Shown in pieces: positions 1,316 through 55,164 of a stretch of 64,000 nt of DNA. Below the pieces are notes generated by a model. That model was not told where the DNA came from and did not search any database. It saw only the letters and a list, made by a program, of their open reading frames with translations. The stretch comes from Candidatus Spyradenecus sp. (GTDB lineage: Bacteria; Verrucomicrobiota; Kiritimatiellia; RFP12; DVOR01). The stretch is from the NCBI GenBank assembly GCA_045605345.1, contig JAZUPT010000016.1, forward strand, positions 4,363-68,362, in the 5' to 3' direction. The first letter of the stretch is position 1. Each line of letters opens with the position of its first letter. A program made the position numbers and the translations under genes.

Positions 1316-3433
1316 TTGGATATTCCTTTTGACAAGGACACTACCATGGCAGAAACGTTTTCTTTCTTTGCTGATCTCAGCATTACCATCGCAGTCGCTG
1401 CGGGCGTTGGCATCCTCTTTTCGCGCTTCAATCTGCCCCTCACCGTGGGTTATATCCTCGCAGGCATCATCATTGGTCCCCACCTTGGTCCAGCGCTCAT
1501 TCAGAACAGCACAAGTATTCAAATGCTCTCTGACTTCGGTGTGATGTTCTTAATGTTCTCCATCGGATTAGGATTCAGTTTCAGAAAAGTCCGCCAACTC
1601 GGAGGACGCGTCGTCTTCCCTGCCATTTGGGACGTCACCTTTATGGTTGTAGGCGGCTTTGTCACAGGCAAACTCTTAGGTTGGGGCAACCTTGAATGCT
1701 TCTTACTCGGCCTCATCCTCTGCGATAGCTCCACCTCCATCGCAGCCAAGACCTTTGAAAGTTTAGGATGGACCCAACAACGGTTTGCCAACAATACTTT
1801 CGCCATCGCGCTCATTGAAGACGTCCTTGCCATTCTCCTCATCGCTGTCCTCAATGGCGTAAGCGGAGGCACTGCAAACGGGAGTAGTATTGACTTCTGG
1901 GGCACCGCGAGCATCATCGGCAAGCAGATGGGCATCTTAGCACTCTTTCTCGTAGGCGTCACCGTCTTCGGCATTCTCTTAGTGCCTCGCCTTATGAACT
2001 ACGTCTCGCGTCAATTCGGTGATGAAATCGTCTTGATGACGGCGCTTGGTCTCTGCTTCGGCGTCTCCTGCTTGGCCCAAGAAGGCCTGGGGCTCTCCCT
2101 TGTGGTGGGTGCCTTCCTTGTTGGTGCCGTGGTCGCCGAGGCGCAAGCGCGTCGGCGTATTGAACGCATTGTACGCCCTGTCACCGACCTCTTCTCCTCC
2201 GTCTTCTTCGTTTCAGTCGGTCTTATGCTTGATCCACGCGTCATCTTGGCGAACATCGGGATTATCCTCTTCATCACAATTGTTATGATTCTTCTCAAAC
2301 TCGCCAACGGCTTTTTCGCCTGCACCCTCGTCGGTGAACACCCCAAAGACGCCTTTAAGACTGGCATCAGCCTCGGTCAGGTGGCAGAATTTTCCTTCAT
2401 CATTGCAGGTATCGCCATGGCAGGTAAGATGAGCGACCAACCCCTCTACCAAATCGCTGCTGGCATCGCCCTCCTCTGCACCGCGACCAATCCCTATCTG
2501 CTGCGCTACTCCGACAAACTCTACGCCCTCGCTTCACGCTTCGCAGGCCCCAAAGTCCGTAACTTCTTCTTCGCCTACAAGTCTGCGCTCTACGATATGA
2601 ACCGCACCCAAGACGAAGGCGGACGCTCGGGTGTGGCGCAAATTCGCACCTATGCCATTCAAATCGGCATTAGCTTGGCAATCATTGCCATCCTCTTCGG
2701 TGCAGTCTACTTCGTTGCACAAATTCCCACAGTTCACAACTTTCTCCTCAATCTCGACACCTATTGGCAACCTGCCCGCTTCAAAATCCTCTGGAGTGGC
2801 CTCCTCTGCAGTGCAGTAGCGATGTTAATTACCTCACCAGGCTTTTGGACTGCACAACACCTTTGGCGCGAACTCACCGACTACATCATGGAGACTGCAC
2901 TCTCTCGCTCCACAGCACGCATTCAACACGTCCGCGCGCTCGTACGGTTTTTGCTCACGGTGGCAGGTTGGGCAGGACTTCTCTGCTATGCATTCCTCCT
3001 CTGTTCCACCTTCATTAGCAATATTTGGGTCCTTGCCGTCGTCATCTATGGCGCCTCCCTCGTAATGGTGTGTTGCTCCAAACGCTTCAAGCACAACTAC
3101 CGCATCTCCCACGCAGAATTAGCGCGCGCCTTTGACATTGGCGCGCTCCCCTGCGAAGACCCTGTCAACATTGGTGAAGTGCTCGCCGTACACACCGAGA
3201 CCATCGTCGTACCACGCTTTGCTCTTGCTGATGGCAAGACCCTTGGCGAACTCAATCTACGTGGCATTACAGGTGCGGCCGTCATCTCTGTCTCCATTCC
3301 TGGCGAACCACCTGTCGTTTCTCCTGGACGCGACACGCGCCTCGTCGCAGGAGCCTCCCTCGTGGTCGTGGGTTCGGACAATGAAATTTTACTGGCTACC
3401 GATTTGCTCACTTGCCCTGCGCAAGACGCCTAA
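1316..3433 (+). CDS. CPA2-family monovalent cation:proton antiporter (KefB-like) with C-terminal TrkA-C/RCK_C domain
   Basis: Polytopic membrane N-terminus (FSRFNLPLTVGYILAGIIIGPHLGP, FLMFSIGLGF). The C-terminal soluble part VNIGEVLAVHTETIVVPRFALADGKTLGELNLRGITGAAVISV...LVVVGSDNEI is TrkA-C-like. The true start may be the ATG at 1346 (MAETFSFF). Confidence 0.75.
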   Translation: MDIPFDKDTTMAETFSFFADLSITIAVAAGVGILFSRFNLPLTVGYILAGIIIGPHLGPALIQNSTSIQMLSDFGVMFLMFSIGLGFSFRKVRQLGGRVVFPAIWDVTFMVVGGFVTGKLLGWGNLECFLLGLILCDSSTSIAAKTFESLGWTQQRFANNTFAIALIEDVLAILLIAVLNGVSGGTANGSSIDFWGTASIIGKQMGILALFLVGVTVFGILLVPRLMNYVSRQFGDEIVLMTALGLCFGVSCLAQEGLGLSLVVGAFLVGAVVAEAQARRRIERIVRPVTDLFSSVFFVSVGLMLDPRVILANIGIILFITIVMILLKLANGFFACTLVGEHPKDAFKTGISLGQVAEFSFIIAGIAMAGKMSDQPLYQIAAGIALLCTATNPYLLRYSDKLYALASRFAGPKVRNFFFAYKSALYDMNRTQDEGGRSGVAQIRTYAIQIGISLAIIAILFGAVYFVAQIPTVHNFLLNLDTYWQPARFKILWSGLLCSAVAMLITSPGFWTAQHLWRELTDYIMETALSRSTARIQHVRALVRFLLTVAGWAGLLCYAFLLCSTFISNIWVLAVVIYGASLVMVCCSKRFKHNYRISHAELARAFDIGALPCEDPVNIGEVLAVHTETIVVPRFALADGKTLGELNLRGITGAAVISVSIPGEPPVVSPGRDTRLVAGASLVVVGSDNEILLATDLLTCPAQDA

Positions 3434-3531: not shown

Positions 3532-4953
3532 ATGGACTACATCTCCACGCGCGGACTTGCCCCAAAAGTTACCGGCACCCAAGCATTACTCAATGGCATC
3601 GCCCCCGATGGCGGCCTCTATATCCCCGCGCAACCCCTCGCCCCATTACCCGCTGGCGCAGATTTTAAGACCACCATGGAAGCCTTGCTTGAGCGCTTCT
3701 TTGACGATATCCCCGAAGCCGTTCGCAAAGATGCCATCGCTCAAGCGCTCTCCCGTTTCCGTGACGCAGAGATTGTCCCCCTCAAAACCTTTGACAATCT
3801 CTCCTTCCTCGAACTCTTCCACGGTCCGACCTATGCCTTCAAGGATGTCGCCCTTACGCTTTTGCCTCACTTGATGCGCTATGCAGCACAGGTCTCTGGC
3901 ATCAATCGCGTCTGCGTCCTTACTGCCACCAGTGGTGACACTGGTAGCGCCGCAATGCGTGGTTTCGCCGATATCCCTGGCACCTCCGTCCTCGTCTTCT
4001 ACCCGAAAGTCGGCACCTCTGAGATCCAACGTCGCCAGATGGTTTGTTGCCCTGGCGGAAATGTCTCGGCTTGTGCAATTGAGGGCAACTTCGATGACGC
4101 GCAGGCTGCCGTGAAGGCCGCCTTTGCCGACCCCGTACTTGCCGACCGTGCCCGCGCCGCAGGTTGCCTCCTCTCTTCGGCCAATAGCATTAATATCGGT
4201 CGCCTCTTCCCGCAGATTTGCTACTACCTTGACTGCGCACGCCGTTTGGGTCGTCCCTTTGACGTGGTTGTCCCCACTGGTAACTTCGGCAACATCCTCG
4301 CCGCACACTACGCTTGGCAGCTCGGTGCCCCGATTGAACGTCTCACCGTTGCCTCTAATGCCAATCGTGTCGTCTGCGACTTCGTCCGAACAGGTTGCTA
4401 CGATTCCCGCCGTGAATTCCGCATTACCAATTCGCCCTCGATGGATATCCTCGTCTCGTCGAATGTCGAACGCCTCTTGTGGTTGCTCTCCAAGGGCAAT
4501 GATGTGGAAGTGCGCACATGGGAATCCCAACTGAAGGCCGAAGGTCACTTCGCCCTTTCGGGTTATCCTTTGCACGACTTGAAGACCAAGTTCGCCTCGG
4601 GATGGGCCACGCCGGAAGAAACCGAAGCCGCCATCGCCGACATTTGGCGCAACTATCACTACCTCGCCGACCCCCACACGGCAATCGGTTGGAAGGTAAA
4701 TCGCGATCTCCCCATGACTGGACGCCCCACCGTCATTGCCGCCACGGCATCGCCTTGGAAGTTCCCTGTCACGATGCTTCGCGCACTCACAGGCAAGACC
4801 ATTTCTGATGAATTCGCTGCTGCAGGTGGCCTCGCCGCCTTGACAGGCGAAACGCCGGCCTTGGTGGACCTCAAGAATGCGCCCATCTTGCATGACGCAG
4901 TCACCTTCCGCGATACGGTGCCCGAAACCATTTGCCGCACCTTCTCGCTCTAA
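3532..4953 (+). CDS. thrC: threonine synthase
   Basis: MDYISTRG...ALLNGIAPDGGLYIP matches the threonine synthase N-terminus, with a PLP-fold body (FKDVALT, TSGDTGSAA). A strong RBS aaggag lies 7 nt upstream. Confidence 0.9.
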   Translation: MDYISTRGLAPKVTGTQALLNGIAPDGGLYIPAQPLAPLPAGADFKTTMEALLERFFDDIPEAVRKDAIAQALSRFRDAEIVPLKTFDNLSFLELFHGPTYAFKDVALTLLPHLMRYAAQVSGINRVCVLTATSGDTGSAAMRGFADIPGTSVLVFYPKVGTSEIQRRQMVCCPGGNVSACAIEGNFDDAQAAVKAAFADPVLADRARAAGCLLSSANSINIGRLFPQICYYLDCARRLGRPFDVVVPTGNFGNILAAHYAWQLGAPIERLTVASNANRVVCDFVRTGCYDSRREFRITNSPSMDILVSSNVERLLWLLSKGNDVEVRTWESQLKAEGHFALSGYPLHDLKTKFASGWATPEETEAAIADIWRNYHYLADPHTAIGWKVNRDLPMTGRPTVIAATASPWKFPVTMLRALTGKTISDEFAAAGGLAALTGETPALVDLKNAPILHDAVTFRDTVPETICRTFSL

Positions 4954-11148: not shown

Positions 11149-12135
11149 TTACGGCACAGGCACTTCGGTTAAGAGACGATCAATCACGCTGTCCGGCGTG
11201 AGATTTTCCGCTTCAGCTTCATAAGAGAGCAACAAACGATGACGCAGCACATCATGTGCCACATCCTTCACATCCTGCGGTGTGGCATAGGTGCGCCCAC
11301 GCAAAAGGGCCGTAGCACGTGCCGCCAACTTCAGGCAAATCGAAGCACGTGGCGACGCGCCCAACTGAATCGCCCCTTCAAGGCTTTCCAAGCCCTTGAA
11401 CAACGTCGGATTACGCGTTGCGAACACCAAATCCAAGATGTAATCATCCACCTTCGCATCGCAGTGCACCTCGCCCGCCGTGCGACGCAAAAGCGCGATG
11501 TCTTCAGACGTTACGCAACACGTCGGTGCGGGCACCGCCACGGCTTCAGGACGCGTATTGCCATTCATGATGCGGCGTTCATCCTCACGGCCAGGATGTT
11601 TCACCACGCACTTGAACATAAAACGGTCCGTCTGCGCTTCAGGCAAAGGATATGTGCCTTCCTGTTCAATCGGGTTCTGCGTTGCCATCACCAAGAAGGG
11701 TTCTGGTAATGCATACGTGGTATCACCCAAGGTCACCTGACGCTCCTGCATCGCTTCAAGCAGTGCCGACTGCACCTTCGCCGGTGCGCGGTTGATTTCG
11801 TCAGCAATCAAGAGATGCGTGAAGACCGGCCCCTTGCGCGGCGTGAAGGTGCCTTCTTTGTGGTTGTAGGTCAAACCACCCGTCACATCCGCAGGCAACA
11901 AATCTGGCGTAAAGGAAATACGACGCGTGTCCAATCCCAATGCCGCCGCCAAAGCACGCACAGCCGTAGTCTTTGCCAAGCCAGGCACACCTTCCAAAAG
12001 AATGTGGCCACCCGTCATGAGTGCAATTAAAAGGCTATCCAAAAGATGCTCTTGCCCCACAAGCATCTTATTCACTTCGCCACGAATCGCCGCAAGAATC
12101 TGCGTGCACCGAGTAGAACCATCTGCAGAAGACAT
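11149..12135 (-). CDS. MoxR-family AAA+ ATPase
   Basis: HILLEGVPGLAKTTAVRALA (Walker A), LIADEINRAPAKVQSALLEAMQERQVT, MoxR-type C-terminus. Confidence 0.85.
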   Translation of the reverse strand: MSSADGSTRCTQILAAIRGEVNKMLVGQEHLLDSLLIALMTGGHILLEGVPGLAKTTAVRALAAALGLDTRRISFTPDLLPADVTGGLTYNHKEGTFTPRKGPVFTHLLIADEINRAPAKVQSALLEAMQERQVTLGDTTYALPEPFLVMATQNPIEQEGTYPLPEAQTDRFMFKCVVKHPGREDERRIMNGNTRPEAVAVPAPTCCVTSEDIALLRRTAGEVHCDAKVDDYILDLVFATRNPTLFKGLESLEGAIQLGASPRASICLKLAARATALLRGRTYATPQDVKDVAHDVLRHRLLLSYEAEAENLTPDSVIDRLLTEVPVP

Positions 12136-12269: not shown

Positions 12270-12625
12270 GGGGGTGTAGAGGTGAATCGCCGTATGGAAG
12301 GTGGGCTTGAAAGTCGCCTGCAGTCCTCACCAGCCGAGGGTTTAACTGTCACAGAGGGCAGAAATAAGCCGCCGTGGTGAGGCGAGGGGACGGCTACTTC
12401 CCGTGCCATCGGCGAGGGATGATTCCCGTGTCTTCGGCGAGAGAGCATTCGGGGGTTCGGGGGGTACCCCCGTCGTTTGGTACCACTCTGGACAGCAGAT
12501 GGCTAAGAGACGGAGAGGGTGACGTGGGGGAGCACGCCGCCCCACACCCCTGCGGCAGGACTAGTCCTGCACGCTACGCATCCTAACGGATGCTTTTACT
12601 GGTGCTCACGAGGATGAAAAGAAAG
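12270..12625. repeat. mosaic intergenic repeat cluster A: two GTGARYCGCCG modules plus a three-hairpin module shared with 50.9 kb
   Basis: 12523-12614 (gtgggggagcacgccgccccacac ccctgcggcaggactagtcctgcacgctacgcatcctaacggatgcttttactggtgctcacgagga) is ~90% identical to 50887-50981. 12346-12375 ctgtcacagagggcagaaataagccgccg matches 51136-51165 ctgtcacaaaggcagaagtgagtcgccg and 43668-43690. There is no ORF longer than 77 aa in the 870-bp gap. Confidence 0.55.
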
Positions 12626-12765
12626 AGCTCTGGGGACGAAGCGCACAGCGACTGGTTAGAAGACGGCATTTATCGTAGCCACGGCCCACTGCGGCCGTAG
12701 TGCACTCTGAATAACGGGTGGTTGAAATGGACGAAGCGGGACTGTGGGTGGCTAAAATCTGGGCA

Positions 12766-12822
12766 TTATCTATCCTTAATCTATCTGATAGACGGGCCGC
12801 AGCCCGTCTGATCTATCCCTTA
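12766..12822. repeat. CTATC-flanked hairpin module (inverted copy of the core of the 38-kb tandem repeat)
   Basis: atctatccttaatctatctgatAGACGGGCcgcaGCCCGTCTgatctatccc is the reverse-complement homologue of ctatccataacctatctgacAGACGGGCcgttGCCCGTCTcatctatctctatccc at 38370-38420. Stems are identical and loops differ. Confidence 0.55.
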
Positions 12823-36822: not shown

Positions 36823-38100
36823 ATGCTCGATACGCTCCAAATCACCGAACTCTCCAACGGCATCAAAGTCGTCTCCCTTGAAAAGCCCAACGCCGAAAGC
36901 GTCCAAGTCGCCATTCATGCGCGCGTGGGCAGCCGCAACGAAACCGAAGCGCAAAACGGTGCCAGCCACTTCATTGAACACATGCTCTTCAAAGGCACCG
37001 CCAAGCGTAACGCAAAGGCAATCTCCCAAGCTATTGAGGGCCAAGGCGGCTCCATCAATGCCTTCACGGATAAAGATAACACCTGCTACTACGCCAAGGT
37101 CCCCTACGACCGCGCCCTCGCCGCCCTTGAAGTCCTCGGCGACCTCTACTACAACTCGACCTTTGATGAAAAAGAACTCAACCGCGAACGGCAAGTCATC
37201 GCCGAAGAGATTCTTATGTACGATGACCAACCCGATAGCGTCGCCATGGATCGACTCGGTAGCCAACTCTGGTCTGGCCACCCCCTCGGGCGTCCCATCC
37301 TCGGCTCCCTTGAAAATGTCCTCAATATCCCCCGCGAAACCTTGTTGAACTACCGCGCATCACAGTACGCCCCCTCCAGGACGGTCTTCTCCTTCGCCGG
37401 CAGAATCTCCCACGAAAAGTGCGTCAGGGCAGTTGAGAAACTCGCGGGACATCTCCGTAATCCTACCACCCTGCGCGCCCCCGAGCCCTTCTCCCGCGCC
37501 TGCCCCCAAGACTCTCTCACCATCACCCGCCGCGCAATCCAACAGACCCAACTCGCCTTCGGATGGCGCGCTCCCGGCCTCTTAGAGTCCTCCCGCCTCC
37601 CCGCGCTTTCTTTTCTCTCCTGCGCACTCGGCGAAACCATGATGTCGCGCCTCTTCCAAAACATCCGCGAACGCAAGGGCCTCTGCTATAGCGTAACCAG
37701 TGGCACCACCCTCTGCCTAGACTGCGGCGCCCTCTTAATTACCGCAGGATGCGATGCGGCAAAGGCGGCCAACTGCACCAAATCAATCCTCGCAGAAATT
37801 CGCAAAATCATTGAAAAGCCCCTTCCTGCCGCTGAACTCCGTCGTACGCGCGACTACCTCTGCGGACGCTTCCGCCTACGCATGGACGGCGCCCCCATCG
37901 GCTGGGCTGCAGGTCGCGTCCTCTTCGGTCTCCCCCCCGACCCCGAAGCCATCCTCGAAGGATTTAGAAATGTCACCGCGGCAGACATCCAAACCCTCGC
38001 GGCCGAAATCCTCACCCCCGAGCGCCTCTCCCTCGCCGTCGTCACCCCCGAAAAAGACCGCCGTACCCCCACCACCTGGTCCAAATTAATGGACTACTAA
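36823..38100 (+). CDS. M16-family (pitrilysin/insulinase-like) zinc peptidase
   Basis: Inverted zinc motif HFIEHMLFKGT (HxxEH) and the downstream Glu region (NAFTDKDNTCYY). Confidence 0.8.
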   Translation: MLDTLQITELSNGIKVVSLEKPNAESVQVAIHARVGSRNETEAQNGASHFIEHMLFKGTAKRNAKAISQAIEGQGGSINAFTDKDNTCYYAKVPYDRALAALEVLGDLYYNSTFDEKELNRERQVIAEEILMYDDQPDSVAMDRLGSQLWSGHPLGRPILGSLENVLNIPRETLLNYRASQYAPSRTVFSFAGRISHEKCVRAVEKLAGHLRNPTTLRAPEPFSRACPQDSLTITRRAIQQTQLAFGWRAPGLLESSRLPALSFLSCALGETMMSRLFQNIRERKGLCYSVTSGTTLCLDCGALLITAGCDAAKAANCTKSILAEIRKIIEKPLPAAELRRTRDYLCGRFRLRMDGAPIGWAAGRVLFGLPPDPEAILEGFRNVTAADIQTLAAEILTPERLSLAVVTPEKDRRTPTTWSKLMDY

Positions 38101-38118
38101 GGCGAAACCCGCTACACA

Positions 38119-38669
38119 GCCGCTTATCTATCCCTCACCTATCTGAGCGGCAGGCCATCCTCCTCAAACAGCGCAACCTCATGCATCAGTGAAGGCGAAG
38201 TGAAGCGCTTTCTCCACTGAAGGGGCCCCATTAGGCGCCCGCGGCGAGGGGCTTATCTATCAATCACCTATCTGAGCGGCAGGCTGTTGCCTGCCTTATC
38301 TATCCTGAAGCAAGAAAGCCGCCATCGATGGATAATAAAAGCATAGAAGATAGATGAGACGGGATAGAGATAGATGAGACGGGCAACGGCCCGTCTGTCA
38401 GATAGGTTATGGATAGGTTATCAGATAGGTTATGGATAGATTATTTAAGGGGACTCGCAGGTGGTCGCCTCATGGTATCTGCGGCGCAGCCGCTTATCTA
38501 TCGATCACCTATCTGAGCGGCAGGCTGTTGCCTGCCTTATCTATCCCGAGGCAAGAAAGTTTCCATCAATGGATAGATAAAAGCATAGAAGATAGATGAG
38601 ACGGGATAGAGATAGATGAGACGGGCAACGGCCCGTCTGTCAGATAGGTTATGGATAGATTATTTAGGG
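38119..38669. repeat. tandem array of ~190-bp CTATC/GATAG-rich units (two near-identical full copies with 239-bp period, plus a partial third) in a convergent intergenic region
   Basis: Copy 38252-38450 and copy 38491-38669 are >95% identical. A partial copy lies at 38119-38175. Each unit has hairpin GGCAGGctgttGCCTGCC, hairpin AGACGGGCaacgGCCCGTCT, and direct GATAGATGAGACGGG x2 and CAGATAGGTTATGGATAG x2-3 motifs. Confidence 0.8.
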
Positions 38670-38821
38670 CTCCTCGCCACGCCACCACTTCACACTCTGA
38701 AGCTATCCTCCTCTCTATCACCGCGGCCTCGTGGCGAGACGGGGATGCGGCGCAGGACTGCATGTAAAGTTTCCGCTATCCAAATGGGCCCACGAAGGCT
38801 GTGGGACACGCGATGCGGGGA

Positions 38822-50884: not shown

Positions 50885-51172
50885 ATGTGGGGGCGACGCC
50901 GCCCCCACACGCCCCTGCGGCAGGACTGAGTCCTGCACCCTACGCATCCTGACGGATGCTTTTACTGGTGCTCACGAGGAGGAAGCAGAAGTGAGCCGCC
51001 GAGGAGGTGACCCGTGGGGTGAGGCGGGGATGGCAGGCTACGGCCTGCCAATCAGATAGGTGAGCGGCTAACGCCGCAAAGCCGCGCAAGCGCGGCCCTC
51101 CTGAGGTGATGAGGTACATAGCCAGCTCACACTTGACTGTCACAAAGGCAGAAGTGAGTCGCCGAGGTTATA
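50885..51172. repeat. mosaic intergenic repeat cluster C (three-hairpin module, two GTGAGYCGCCG modules, inverted CTATC-hairpin module)
   Basis: 50887-50981 is homologous to 12523-12614. 50984-51030 and 51136-51170 carry cagaagtgagYcgccgagg. 51034-51066 ggcaggctacggcctgccaatcagataggtgagcgg is the reverse complement of cacctatctgagcggcaggctgttgcctgcc in the 38-kb tandem unit. Confidence 0.55.
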
Positions 51173-53433: not shown

Positions 53434-53967
53434 TTAGTAATTCCGAGCTTCGAGTGCGAAGTAAGCCTTCGGGTGCTTGCACACGGGGCACAATTCAGGC
53501 GCCTTGTCGCTGATGACAATCGCGCCGCAGTTCAAGCATTCCCAACGGTTCTTGCCGCTACGCACGAAGACCTCTCCGGTCTCAACATTCTTAGCGAGCG
53601 CATTGTAACGTTCTTCGTGGCGAGCTTCCACTTCAGCCACAGCGCGCATCTGACGAGCGATTTCAGTAAAGCCTTCTTCTTCAGCTTCATCTGCCATGCG
53701 CTTGTACATGTCGGTCCATTCGTAGTTTTCGCCAGCGGCAGCGGCCTTGAGGTTGTCAATGGTCGAACCGATGCCCTCGAGGTGCTTGAACCACAACTTA
53801 GCATGTTCCTTTTCGTTGTTGGCCGTCTCTTCGAAGATCTTTGAGATCTGGACATAACCTTCCTTCTTAGCGACGGACGCGAAGTAGGTGTACTTGTTGC
53901 GTGCTTGGGATTCGCCTGCGAAAGCTTCCCAGAGGTTCTTTTCGGTCTTGCTACCCTTGAGTTCCAT
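53434..53967 (-). CDS. rbr: rubrerythrin
   Basis: N-terminal diiron ferritin-like domain ([28 protein letters not shown]) and C-terminal rubredoxin CxxC...CPVC. Confidence 0.9.
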
Positions 53968-54234
53968 TGTCTCTCTCCTTTTGTTGTTTAAGTGCTACGA
54001 GGACACGTCGTCCTCTCAACGCCACAAAGTATACGATAACTCCACAAATAAAATCAAGCACTTTTTGTAATTATTTCAAAAATAATTTTAAAACAATTGA
54101 AAAATCAGTACTTTCTAAAATCTACTTCTTCCTAAAATCACCCCTTTTAACAAAAACTGCGTATTAAGACCCCCCCATCTACTCCACAAAAAGACAAAAA
54201 AGACCTGCAAACTGACGCTTGCAGGTCTTCAAAT

Positions 54235-54309
54235 GGTCGGCCTCGCGGGGATCGAACCCGCGACCCCAACATTAAAAGTGTCGTGCTCTACCAACTGAGC
54301 TAGAGGCCG
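54235..54309 (-). tRNA. tRNA-Lys (anticodon TTT)
   Basis: Minus-strand sequence CGGCCTC-TA-GCTC-AGTTGGTA-GAGC-A-CGACA-CTTTTAA-TGTTG-GGGTC-GCGGG-TTCGATC-CCCGC-GAGGCCG-A-CCA folds as a cloverleaf with a 7-bp acceptor stem, a TTCGATC T-loop, the anticodon loop CTTTTAA and an encoded CCA. A hairpin (agacctgcaa...ttgcaggtct, 54201-54230) lies immediately 3'. Confidence 0.9.
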
Positions 54310-54330: not shown

Positions 54331-54530
54331 AACGACTCCTCAAGACGCAAGCAAATTCTTTACGCAAGCGGCGTGGCCGAGGGCTAATGCCGTGGGGATT
54401 AAACCGCAACACACGCCAGACACTCAAAAAAGAGGTTCAAGTCCCAAGTGTATGGATAAAATTCAATGTACGGGGAGTTCTTCCTTTACTTTTGCATAGC
54501 TTTGGTTAGGAAAAAGGGCGAAATCAGCTT

Positions 54531-54620
54531 AAGTTTGTAACAAACTGGATTTAAGTTTGTAACAAACTGAGATTGAGTTTGTAACAAACTGGATTTGAGT
54601 TTGTAACAAACTGAGATTGA
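54531..54620. repeat. four tandem 22-23-bp direct repeats, each with palindrome GTTTGTAACAAAC, alternating TGGATTT / TGAGATTG tails (2 x 45-bp super-unit)
   Basis: aagtttgtaacaaactggattt / aagtttgtaacaaactgagattg / agtttgtaacaaactggatttg / agtttgtaacaaactgagattg. The repeats lie in an AT-rich segment about 220 bp upstream of tRNA-Lys. Confidence 0.8.
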
Positions 54621-55104
54621 AAACTGCCCTTATTGCTTAGTTATTTTGTCTCACATGAGATGGTAATTGGGAAGAAGTGTGGATTCTCTAAAGCTAAAAA
54701 CGTGCGTTAAGCCTATGCGCTTAAGTTTTTTGTGTGGGTGGTATGCTTTTAGCACGCTACATGTTTTATTGTTTCTACTACATAGGTTGCACATTTGCGC
54801 AAAATTCTTGCCTTACCTTAATGGAAGGACTATCCTATTTCGCCATTTTTCAAGTTCAGCATCTAATTCACGCGTTGCTCGAAAACTTATGCTGCACTAA
54901 CATCTACACCACAAGGTACATGGAATATATCCTAAACCTTATGCGTTGAAACACCTTAAATGATGCTTTTTGAATTTAAAAATTGAAGTCGACGAATTAA
55001 CTCGTTGTCTTACCTTTATAAGCCTTTTATTCTTTTACCCACACACTTGGAACTTGAACCAAAAAAGATTACCAAAAGGGAATTTAGAATTCACGAAAAA
55101 CACG

Positions 55105-55146
55105 ATCCAAACAAAAAGATAACCTCACGGCACCGTGAGGTTATCT
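55105..55146 (-). terminator. rho-independent terminator of the giant CotH-family gene
   Basis: A perfect 14-bp stem agataacctcacgg-ca-ccgtgaggttatct is followed on the minus strand by ttttgtttgg, 19 nt after the stop. Confidence 0.6.
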
Positions 55147-55164
55147 TTGGAAAAGTGGCGTTCT

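Follow-up and report, generated by a model that had tools for sequence, protein, structure and literature searches.

The BOX element of Streptococcus pneumoniae consists of a variable tandem array of boxB units located between the complementary modules boxA and boxC (boxA-boxBn-boxC); it is predicted to form stem-loops and is regarded as similar to MITEs (miniature inverted-repeat transposable elements), and in Streptococcus suis one boxB was found to be used between different end modules (PMC3049150). Here, we analyzed a 64,000-nucleotide stretch of DNA from Candidatus Spyradenecus sp. (contig JAZUPT010000016.1), called the window in the following, in which four 22-bp direct repeats are located close to a tRNA-Lys gene. 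The four repeats are probably the central tandem module of a MITE-like and BOX-like, non-autonomous dispersed repeat, for which the pneumococcal BOX element is the best analogue.

Like BOX in S. pneumoniae and S. suis, this repeat is a dispersed intergenic non-coding sequence in which complementary ends enclose a variable tandem module. The 22-mer, in 2–6 copies, stands between two arms, A and A′, and at least three different surrounding sequences (shells) contain this module; the likeness is one of architecture only, and relatedness in sequence is not expected, as the phyla differ. In contrast to BOX, the host phylum is PVC (Planctomycetes, Verrucomicrobia, Chlamydiae) and not Firmicutes, the unit is 22 bp long with a perfect 15-bp palindrome (boxB: 45 bp), and far fewer copies appear to be present than the more than 100 per pneumococcal genome. 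In addition, the copy in the window is enclosed by a larger shell that has inverted ends of 28 bp and a duplication of 8 bp. With bacterial MITEs such as Correia of Neisseria, RUP, and Nezha, the element shares its small size (627 bp), AT-rich non-coding sequence, inverted ends, target duplication, intergenic location in multiple contexts, and strong predicted secondary structure. Unlike these, it has no parent insertion sequence that could be found, most of the copies recovered have only one recognizable end, and the internal palindrome array is unusual. Repetitive extragenic palindromes (REPs) and the bacterial interspersed mosaic elements (BIMEs) of enterobacteria and pseudomonads are likewise short intergenic palindrome clusters forming mosaics with other repeat modules. 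However, REPs are GC-rich, imperfect sequences of 20–40 nt with a 5′ GTAG, they alternate in orientation, are mobilized by REP-associated tyrosine transposases (RAYTs), and have neither inverted ends nor target duplications, whereas the units described in this work are perfect, AT-rich palindromes in direct orientation and strict phase. Membership in REP/BIME was rejected, as GTAG is absent from the Kiritimatiellae copies and was found, in the spacer, only in an array from a Bacteroidetes metagenome-assembled genome (MAG; L014, see below). Iterons of theta-replicating plasmids (pPS10, R6K gamma) and tandem centromere repeats (sopC, parC) also consist of head-to-tail units of ~22 bp in exact helical phase, and the sopC units contain an inverted repeat, but here the units are perfect palindromes at multiple chromosomal loci, with neither a rep or par gene nor a replicon context and without a plasmid or phage match.

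The array in the window

The array comprises four units of 22 bp by direct reading of the window sequence. Tandem Repeats Finder reported a period of 22 bp with 4.0 copies and 91% matches at 54529–54618, and a period of 44 bp with 2.0 copies and 97% matches at 54532–54620. Both confirmed the four direct repeats of the original prediction, which had been made from the sequence by inspection; its 45-bp super-period has to be corrected to 44 bp. Each unit consists of a palindrome, AGTTTGT-A-ACAAACT (AGTTTGTAACAAACT), followed by a 7-bp spacer. A palindrome is thus present in every unit as predicted, but with 15 bp (7-1-7) and not 13 bp (6-1-6). Within the array, AGTTTGTAACAAACT is followed by GGATTTA, GAGATTG, GGATTTG, and GAGATTG, in this order. 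The alternating tails described before are therefore real in the window; they are not kept in the homologous copies L011, L017, and L019, in which the spacers are ordered otherwise.

The 13-bp core GTTTGTAACAAAC occurs four times in the window, exclusively in the array, as compared to 0.06 expected occurrences, and none of 100 shuffled sequences reached four. No further 15-mer was present in the 64 kb of the window, even when three mismatches were allowed, so that isolated additional sites, proposed as a check, are lacking there. The tRNA-Lys(UUU) gene is located at 54234–54309 on the minus strand; on its upstream side, 222 bp separate the 5′ end from the start of the array, in agreement with the estimate of about 220 bp. 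Also, the description of the segment as AT-rich was correct (GC content 0.35–0.40 vs 0.50–0.58 in the flanking genes).

A 627-bp element with inverted ends and a target duplication

The array lies inside a non-coding element of 627 bp (54434–55060). The terminal inverted repeats of 28 nt are complementary at 25 of 28 positions (89%), while no 28-nt inverted repeat in 200 shuffles of the region surpassed 24/28. Directly outside each end of the element, the same 8 bp, AAAAAAGA, are present in direct orientation and without a mismatch. Internal open reading frames (ORFs) have only 47–77 aa, and the frames are broken by indels in the homologous loci L021, L017, and L011. The element is therefore short and non-coding, has terminal inverted repeats and a target-site duplication, and occurs at unrelated sites, as is characteristic for MITEs, which measure tens to a few hundred bp and seldom ~1 kb; the unrelated sites are those of related genomes and one metagenome, not of the genome of the window itself.

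From this anatomy, the following origin can be proposed. The element would have been inserted by a transposase supplied in trans, which would recognize the 28-bp ends and introduce staggered 8-bp cuts, whereby the AT-rich target AAAAAAGA would be duplicated. Subsequently, the number of 22-mers would shift by slippage or unequal exchange. Since the spacer alternation of the window is absent from the homologues, it presumably records a recent local duplication of a two-unit 44-bp block and is not a design feature. Arm A, n units of 22 bp, and arm A′ form a self-contained sub-module, which was found with 2–6 units in several shells. Because of its palindromic units and inverted arms, this module would fold into a single long hairpin, with a T-run at its end in either direction, if it is single-stranded or transcribed. 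Given such a hairpin and T-run, an effect on neighboring genes, if any, would most likely be that of a terminator, an insulator, or an RNA-stability element.

Copies in other genomes

For the detection of further arrays, one genome per species was scanned, and two exact cores within 30 nt were required. Thereby, arrays were found in four contigs (L006, L010, L011, and L012) of the Kiritimatiellae MAG RGIG7486 (JAFYWN01, water-buffalo colon), which also contains the closest DNA relatives of the window repeat. A scan of Joint Genome Institute (JGI) metagenomes revealed arrays in five contigs of a single assembly, JAEIGA01 (L017–L021). All ten Kiritimatiellae arrays have a period of exactly 22 bp and 2–6 units. 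The exact 15-mer is present in 35 of 47 units, 41 of which come from these ten arrays and 6 from L014. Two arrays are located at contig ends.

The left ~300 bp of the window element, array included, are 85–93% identical in L011, L017, L019, and L021; this identity spans 180–425 bp, and none of the flanking genes is shared with the window. The left end is identical at 28/28 positions in L017, L019, and L021, while L011 is homologous from position 54453 on. An inverted pair, AAAAAGGGCGAA (left) and TTCGCCCTTTTT (right), encloses the arrays in at least three different flanking contexts, and the resulting layout, A-(22-mer)n-A′, was seen in the window, L006, L010 (twice), L011, L012, L017, L019, L020, and L021. 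In L006, the whole module of 103 bp is one imperfect palindrome. The shell of the window element, designated T1, is common to the window, L011, L017, and L021; it is present also in L019, where the module then runs directly into unrelated DNA. A second shell is common to L006 and L010, and further contexts were found in L012 and L020. Genes adjacent to the copies are ordinary chromosomal genes (GH20 hexosaminidases, MlaD, dnaE, dnaN, RNase HII, and a CBM9/GHL10 protein). Among these neighbors there was no integrase, transposase, or rep gene beside any copy, so that the absence of an integrase noted for the window applies to all copies, and no rep gene was found within ±6 kb of any of them. Searches of plasmid and phage collections with the element by blastn gave no match, hence the homologous repeats suggested for such replicons were not found, and scans of viral contigs revealed nothing similar. 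The sole viral match to the core (L016) turned out to be a coding 27-bp repeat.

Two of the loci show additional features. In L010, modules at 3996–4127 (6 units) and 4420–4470 (~2 units) stand in tandem with ~270 bp of AT-rich DNA between them; they are located downstream of tRNA-Pro and upstream of a gene for a large leucine-rich-repeat-like protein. In L021, a 26-bp direct repeat, TCTCTAAAAATAACAGTYCAAAATTT, at 411–436 and 823–848 flanks a truncated copy of the element. The same locus contains two clusters (994–1072 and 1248–1315) of 11-bp-phased TGTTGATAA (= TTATCAACA, DnaA-box-like) upstream of dnaN (1835–2947), which probably represent the chromosomal origin of that genome, with the element copy ~400 bp away. 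The features of the window element are listed in Table 1.

Table 1. Positions of the array, the surrounding element, and its parts in the window.
Feature	Position	Strand	Remarks
Array of four 22-bp units	54532..54619	+	Palindromes at 54532–54546, 54554–54568, 54576–54590, and 54598–54612
Whole MITE-like element, type T1	54434..55060	+	Bounded by inverted repeats and duplication; homology of L017, L019, and L021 begins exactly at 54434
Target-site duplication, left copy, 8 bp, AAAAAAGA	54426..54433	.	Identical to 55061–55068; abuts left terminal inverted repeat
Left terminal inverted repeat, GGTTCAAGTCCCAAGTGTATGGATAAAA	54434..54461	+	Family consensus GGTTCAAGTCCCATGTGTGTGGGTAAAA, 28/28 identical in L017, L019, and L021
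Conserved sub-terminal segment of the T1 shell	54462..54509	+	Nearly invariant in 5 aligned copies
Arm A, left bracket, GAAAAAGGGCGAAAT	54510..54524	+	Directly 5′ of the arrays in L006, L010, L011, L017, L019, and L021; inverted partner of the A′ arms
Arm A′ (degenerate), right bracket, AAAACTGCCCTTATTGC	54620..54636	+	Matched by blastn to TTTCGCCCTTTTTGC of L006; paired to arm A in predicted folds
Putative hairpin-forming conserved stretch of the T1 shell	54636..54671	+	Predicted by RNAalifold from 4 copies; one-sided (wobble) changes only
Weak terminator-like hairpin and T-run	54702..54732	+	Homology of L011 and L017 ends here; stem lost in some copies
Second A′-like arm, ATTTCGCCATTTTTC	54837..54851	+	93% complementary to 54510–54524; common to L021
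Right terminal inverted repeat, minus-strand reading GGTTCAAGTTCCAAGTGTGTGGGTAAAA	55033..55060	-	26/28 to family consensus, 25/28 to left repeat of the window
Target-site duplication, right copy, 8 bp, AAAAAAGA	55061..55068	.	Sequence reading

Points against a mobile repeat and history of the locus

Several observations weigh against the interpretation as a MITE-like, BOX-like dispersed repeat. Both terminal repeats were found only in the window copy, while in L017, L019, and L021 only the left end was present within the 0.6–7 kb of sequence available, and the T1 copies are unlike each other in their right halves. An autonomous element with matching ends was not found, and neither the 27 fetched loci nor viral contigs contained a further match to the ends. 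Copy number seems low, with four array loci in the one MAG scanned when two exact cores were required. The 26-bp repeat flanking the L021 copy exceeds the length of an ordinary target duplication, and a transposase with an 8-bp stagger does not explain it. Among 31 full units, the palindrome arms are 94–100% conserved, with the center base (81%) and most spacer positions (45–84%, one 97%) being free to vary, and an identical 17-bp core with another spacer and a period of 21 bp is present in a Bacteroidetes MAG (L014). The conserved arms together with the L014 core point to sequence-specific selection, which would not be expected if the repeat were a purely selfish minisatellite.

Finally, no empty site was recovered. 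The same-species contigs L001 and L002 (98–99% identity), the only ones retrieved by an exact match through the rubrerythrin gene, are too short for this purpose, as they end at or before tRNA-Lys. Next to CotH orthologues (72–85% identity), which were traced through the C-terminus of the protein, the downstream DNA is unrelated and contains neither the tRNA nor the element. The comparison of the interval between tRNA-Lys and the CotH gene, which had been proposed as a check, therefore revealed relatives lacking the element, but in the absence of synteny these do not represent a clean empty site. Homologues of the rubrerythrin gene at 53434–53967, whose best named relatives are proteins of Kiritimatiellia MAGs, have 88–93% identity and different neighbors, again without synteny.

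Relation to tRNA-Lys and to replication origins

In the original prediction, the array was considered either as a regulatory array for the tRNA-Lys promoter or as a remnant replication or attachment region of a mobile element that was lost. Control of tRNA-Lys by an operator or upstream activating array would fit the position of the repeats, 222 bp upstream of the tRNA 5′ end on the promoter side, and a second array, in L010, is also close to a tRNA gene (tRNA-Pro). However, the L010 array is located downstream of tRNA-Pro and its terminator, and the module occurs at no fewer than ten other loci, only this one being near a tRNA; in 9 of the 11 array loci, the fetched DNA contains no tRNA at all. 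The array of the window moreover belongs to an element with its own ends and target duplication. A plausible promoter (TTGCGT-17-TATCAT, 54350–54322, minus strand), as far as can be read from the sequence, where the signal is weak, is located outside this element; the array starts ~180 bp beyond it, and the element end is 84 bp away. Since the array is part of an inserted element and the copies lie mostly away from tRNA genes, control of tRNA-Lys was rejected, and we consider it extremely improbable.

In being contiguous, 22 bp long, and embedded in AT-rich DNA, the four repeats are reminiscent of iteron origins, for example those of pPS10 and R6K gamma. Accordingly, they might be the iterons of a plasmid or phage origin that has decayed, or arm-type integrase sites at a tRNA hotspot. 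The adjacent tRNA gene would be in line with this, as would the left end of the element, GGTTCAAGTCCC (54434–54445), which resembles a tRNA T-loop/T-arm, and the position of the L021 copy ~400 bp from the DnaA-box-like clusters upstream of dnaN. On the other hand, the T-arm-like end has no T-stem and mismatches tRNA-Lys as well as the tRNA-Leu of L020, the one further tRNA 3′ end that was compared, and an origin of this end from a tRNA fragment was dismissed on the same grounds. No rep, par, or integrase gene is located near any copy, no plasmid, phage, or viral match was obtained, and the copies reside in intergenic regions of an ordinary chromosomal kind. An iteron is as a rule asymmetric, but the units found here are perfect palindromes; in place of the direct repeats of an attachment (att) site, the element has ends that are inverted and a duplication of 8 bp. 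Taken together, this origin is very improbable. Of the remnant hypothesis, the part concerning mobile DNA was borne out, in the form of an intact-looking miniature element; an att site and an iteron origin were both rejected on the basis of context, genes, and the lack of plasmid and phage matches.

Specific candidates were discarded for the following reasons. An att site at the tRNA does not agree with an array on the 5′ side, no duplicated tRNA 3′ end, an absent integrase, and only 2 of 11 array loci near a tRNA. A plasmid or phage iteron origin would have the repeats, which are present, but here they lack a rep gene and a replicon context. A clustered regularly interspaced short palindromic repeat (CRISPR) array was excluded by the 7-nt spacers. 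Bacteroidetes-type promoters (TTTG / TAnnTTTG) at the repeat junctions were rejected too: only two junctions match, the spacing is wrong, and the motifs are lost in other copies. A search for the palindrome in the literature gave a single match, an unrelated Drosophila primer.

Possible function of the palindrome

The conservation pattern of the 31 units suggests selection on the palindrome, and it would fit a dimeric protein bound every two helical turns and, equally, a hairpin module. Thus, while the element is probably a mobile, BOX-like repeat, two explanations of what is selected within it have to be weighed.

According to the first, the palindromes are sites for a dimeric DNA-binding protein, such as a host regulator, a nucleoid protein, or a mobilizer protein, and the 22-bp phase would place the dimers on one face of the helix. 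This is compatible with the transposon-like anatomy, the element then merely spreading the binding platform; what differs is the object of selection. An odd-length 7-1-7 palindrome is the typical format of a helix-turn-helix dimer operator. The arms are 94–100% invariant over 31 units from different shells and genomes, and the periods of 22 bp in the ten Kiritimatiellae arrays and 21 bp in L014 both correspond to about two helical turns. In L014, moreover, the 17-bp core GAGTTTGTAACAAACTG is identical while the spacer is unrelated. The L018 array is located 85 bp upstream of a gene for an HU-like DNA-binding protein. This gene (L018, 11038–11745, minus strand) encodes a candidate binder of 235 aa with an HU-type domain (PF14848, E 3.9e-18); the array, at 11830–11870, marks the end of the fetched locus, which is likely a contig end.

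Several results do not agree with a protein site. No candidate binding protein is consistently adjacent to the arrays, there are no isolated promoter sites in the 64-kb window at up to 3 mismatches, and the arrays have no consistent position or orientation with respect to gene starts, so that they do not behave as transcription-factor operators of a regulon with a neighboring regulator. Tandem duplication alone gives a constant period, and concerted evolution can mimic conservation. Also, a symmetric exchange of G and C, AGTTTCTAAGAAACT, in terminal units (L012, L019) keeps the pairing but alters the bases that a protein would read. Overall, a protein site is conceivable, and we rate it as unlikely but worth keeping in mind.

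The second explanation is that A-(22-mer)n-A′ acts as RNA, that is as a two-way intrinsic terminator, an insulator, or a stabilizing or processing hairpin, spread by the mobile shell. MITE and BOX-type repeats are known to act as such RNA-level elements (PMC3049150). The expected layout would begin with an A-run and a GC-rich closing stem and continue with a long internal hairpin and a U-run. The arms AAAAAGGGCGAA and TTCGCCCTTTTT have the shape of a two-way terminator, the module of L006 is an imperfect palindrome over all of its 103 bp, and the predicted folds are strong (DNA −26.7 kcal/mol, z −8.1; plus-strand RNA z −4.95). In L019 and L020, changes in the arms are matched on both sides (GGGCG/CGCCC to AGGCG/CGCCT and AAGGGC/GCCCTT to ACAGGC/GCCTG(A)), and at 6 of the 9 interpretable loci the flanking genes are co-directional, with the array downstream of the end of one gene. 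Against this, neighboring genes already have terminators of their own (CotH at 55115–55148, the tRNA at 54199–54230, and also in L010 and L011), the A′ arm of the window is degenerate, and the individual 6-bp AU-rich hairpins are weak. No compensatory pair was found in the T1 shell with RNAalifold, a comparison which was uninformative in that the four T1 copies are too similar and have no two-sided changes. Furthermore, structural need alone leaves the nearly invariant stem sequence unaccounted for. A function of the module as RNA is therefore rather doubtful as well. Searches against Rfam revealed only tRNA above the gathering threshold in the window, L006, L010, L011, and L012; sub-threshold matches were generic microRNA-precursor hairpins and were disregarded.

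In several arrays, the terminal units have the exchange AGTTTCTAAGAAACT, and half-swapped hybrids are present in L017 and L020. Together with the matched arm changes in L019 and L020, it would favor selection for pairing, although each of these may trace back to a single ancestral event.

Speculatively, and with little confidence, AGTTTGT-N-ACAAACT might be the recognition site of a putative DNA-binding protein common to gut Kiritimatiellae and at least one Bacteroidota lineage, with the repeat serving as a mobile platform for multiple dimers. If so, 2–6 phased sites two turns apart would rewire or insulate the chromosomal neighborhoods into which they are planted, among them the vicinity of oriC (L021) and the region upstream of dnaE (L019).

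Related cores and other repeat families

The array of L014 (positions 1–125 of a locus of the Bacteroidetes MAG contig JANYDQ010000178) is located at a contig end and comprises six or more units of 21 bp with the core GAGTTTGTAACAAACTG and a GTAGG spacer; a gene for a secreted protein of more than 1283 aa follows 320 bp downstream. Its core reflects either cross-phylum sharing, convergence, or mis-binning. Kinship with further tandem repeats, from cyanobacteria, Methylococcaceae, and other MAGs, was rejected, as these are separate families having only the core GTTTGTA(A/G)CAAAC in common. Among them, L013 (Methylococcaceae) has a tandem repeat of 8 × 42 bp at 880–1210, and the cyanobacterial loci L007 (1610–1760) and L008 (1400–1550) have 21-bp units, GTTnGyArCAAACGCCTwCTy.

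Other dispersed families are present in the same genomes. At 38100–38680, the window contains two tandem copies of ~242 bp of another family with the motifs CTTATCTATC, CACCTATCTGAGCGGCAGGC, GATAGATGAGACGGG (two times), and GATAGGTTATG (multiple times), which occurs also beside the arrays in L006 (~3230–3430) and L010 (~4540–4600) and at 12760–12820 of the window. Short GC-rich modules at 12300–12720 and 50927–50984 of the window are 86–93% identical to L006 2662–2757 and 2934–2989. Judging from these sequences, long intergenic regions of such Kiritimatiellae genomes are mosaics of several short repeat families.

Significance

By this analysis, a false lead was removed, as the array is neither an operator of tRNA-Lys nor the relic of a plasmid origin. 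Instead, it probably belongs to a previously undescribed family of BOX-like, MITE-like repeats in Kiritimatiellae, an uncultured and poorly annotated lineage of gut and rumen. Repeats of this kind break short-read assemblies and are easily mistaken for regulatory sites, CRISPR-like arrays, or origins, while their variable unit number can be used as a marker for strain typing. If the palindrome is a protein site or part of a functional terminator, regulatory or insulating modules would be spread by transposition outside the well-studied phyla.

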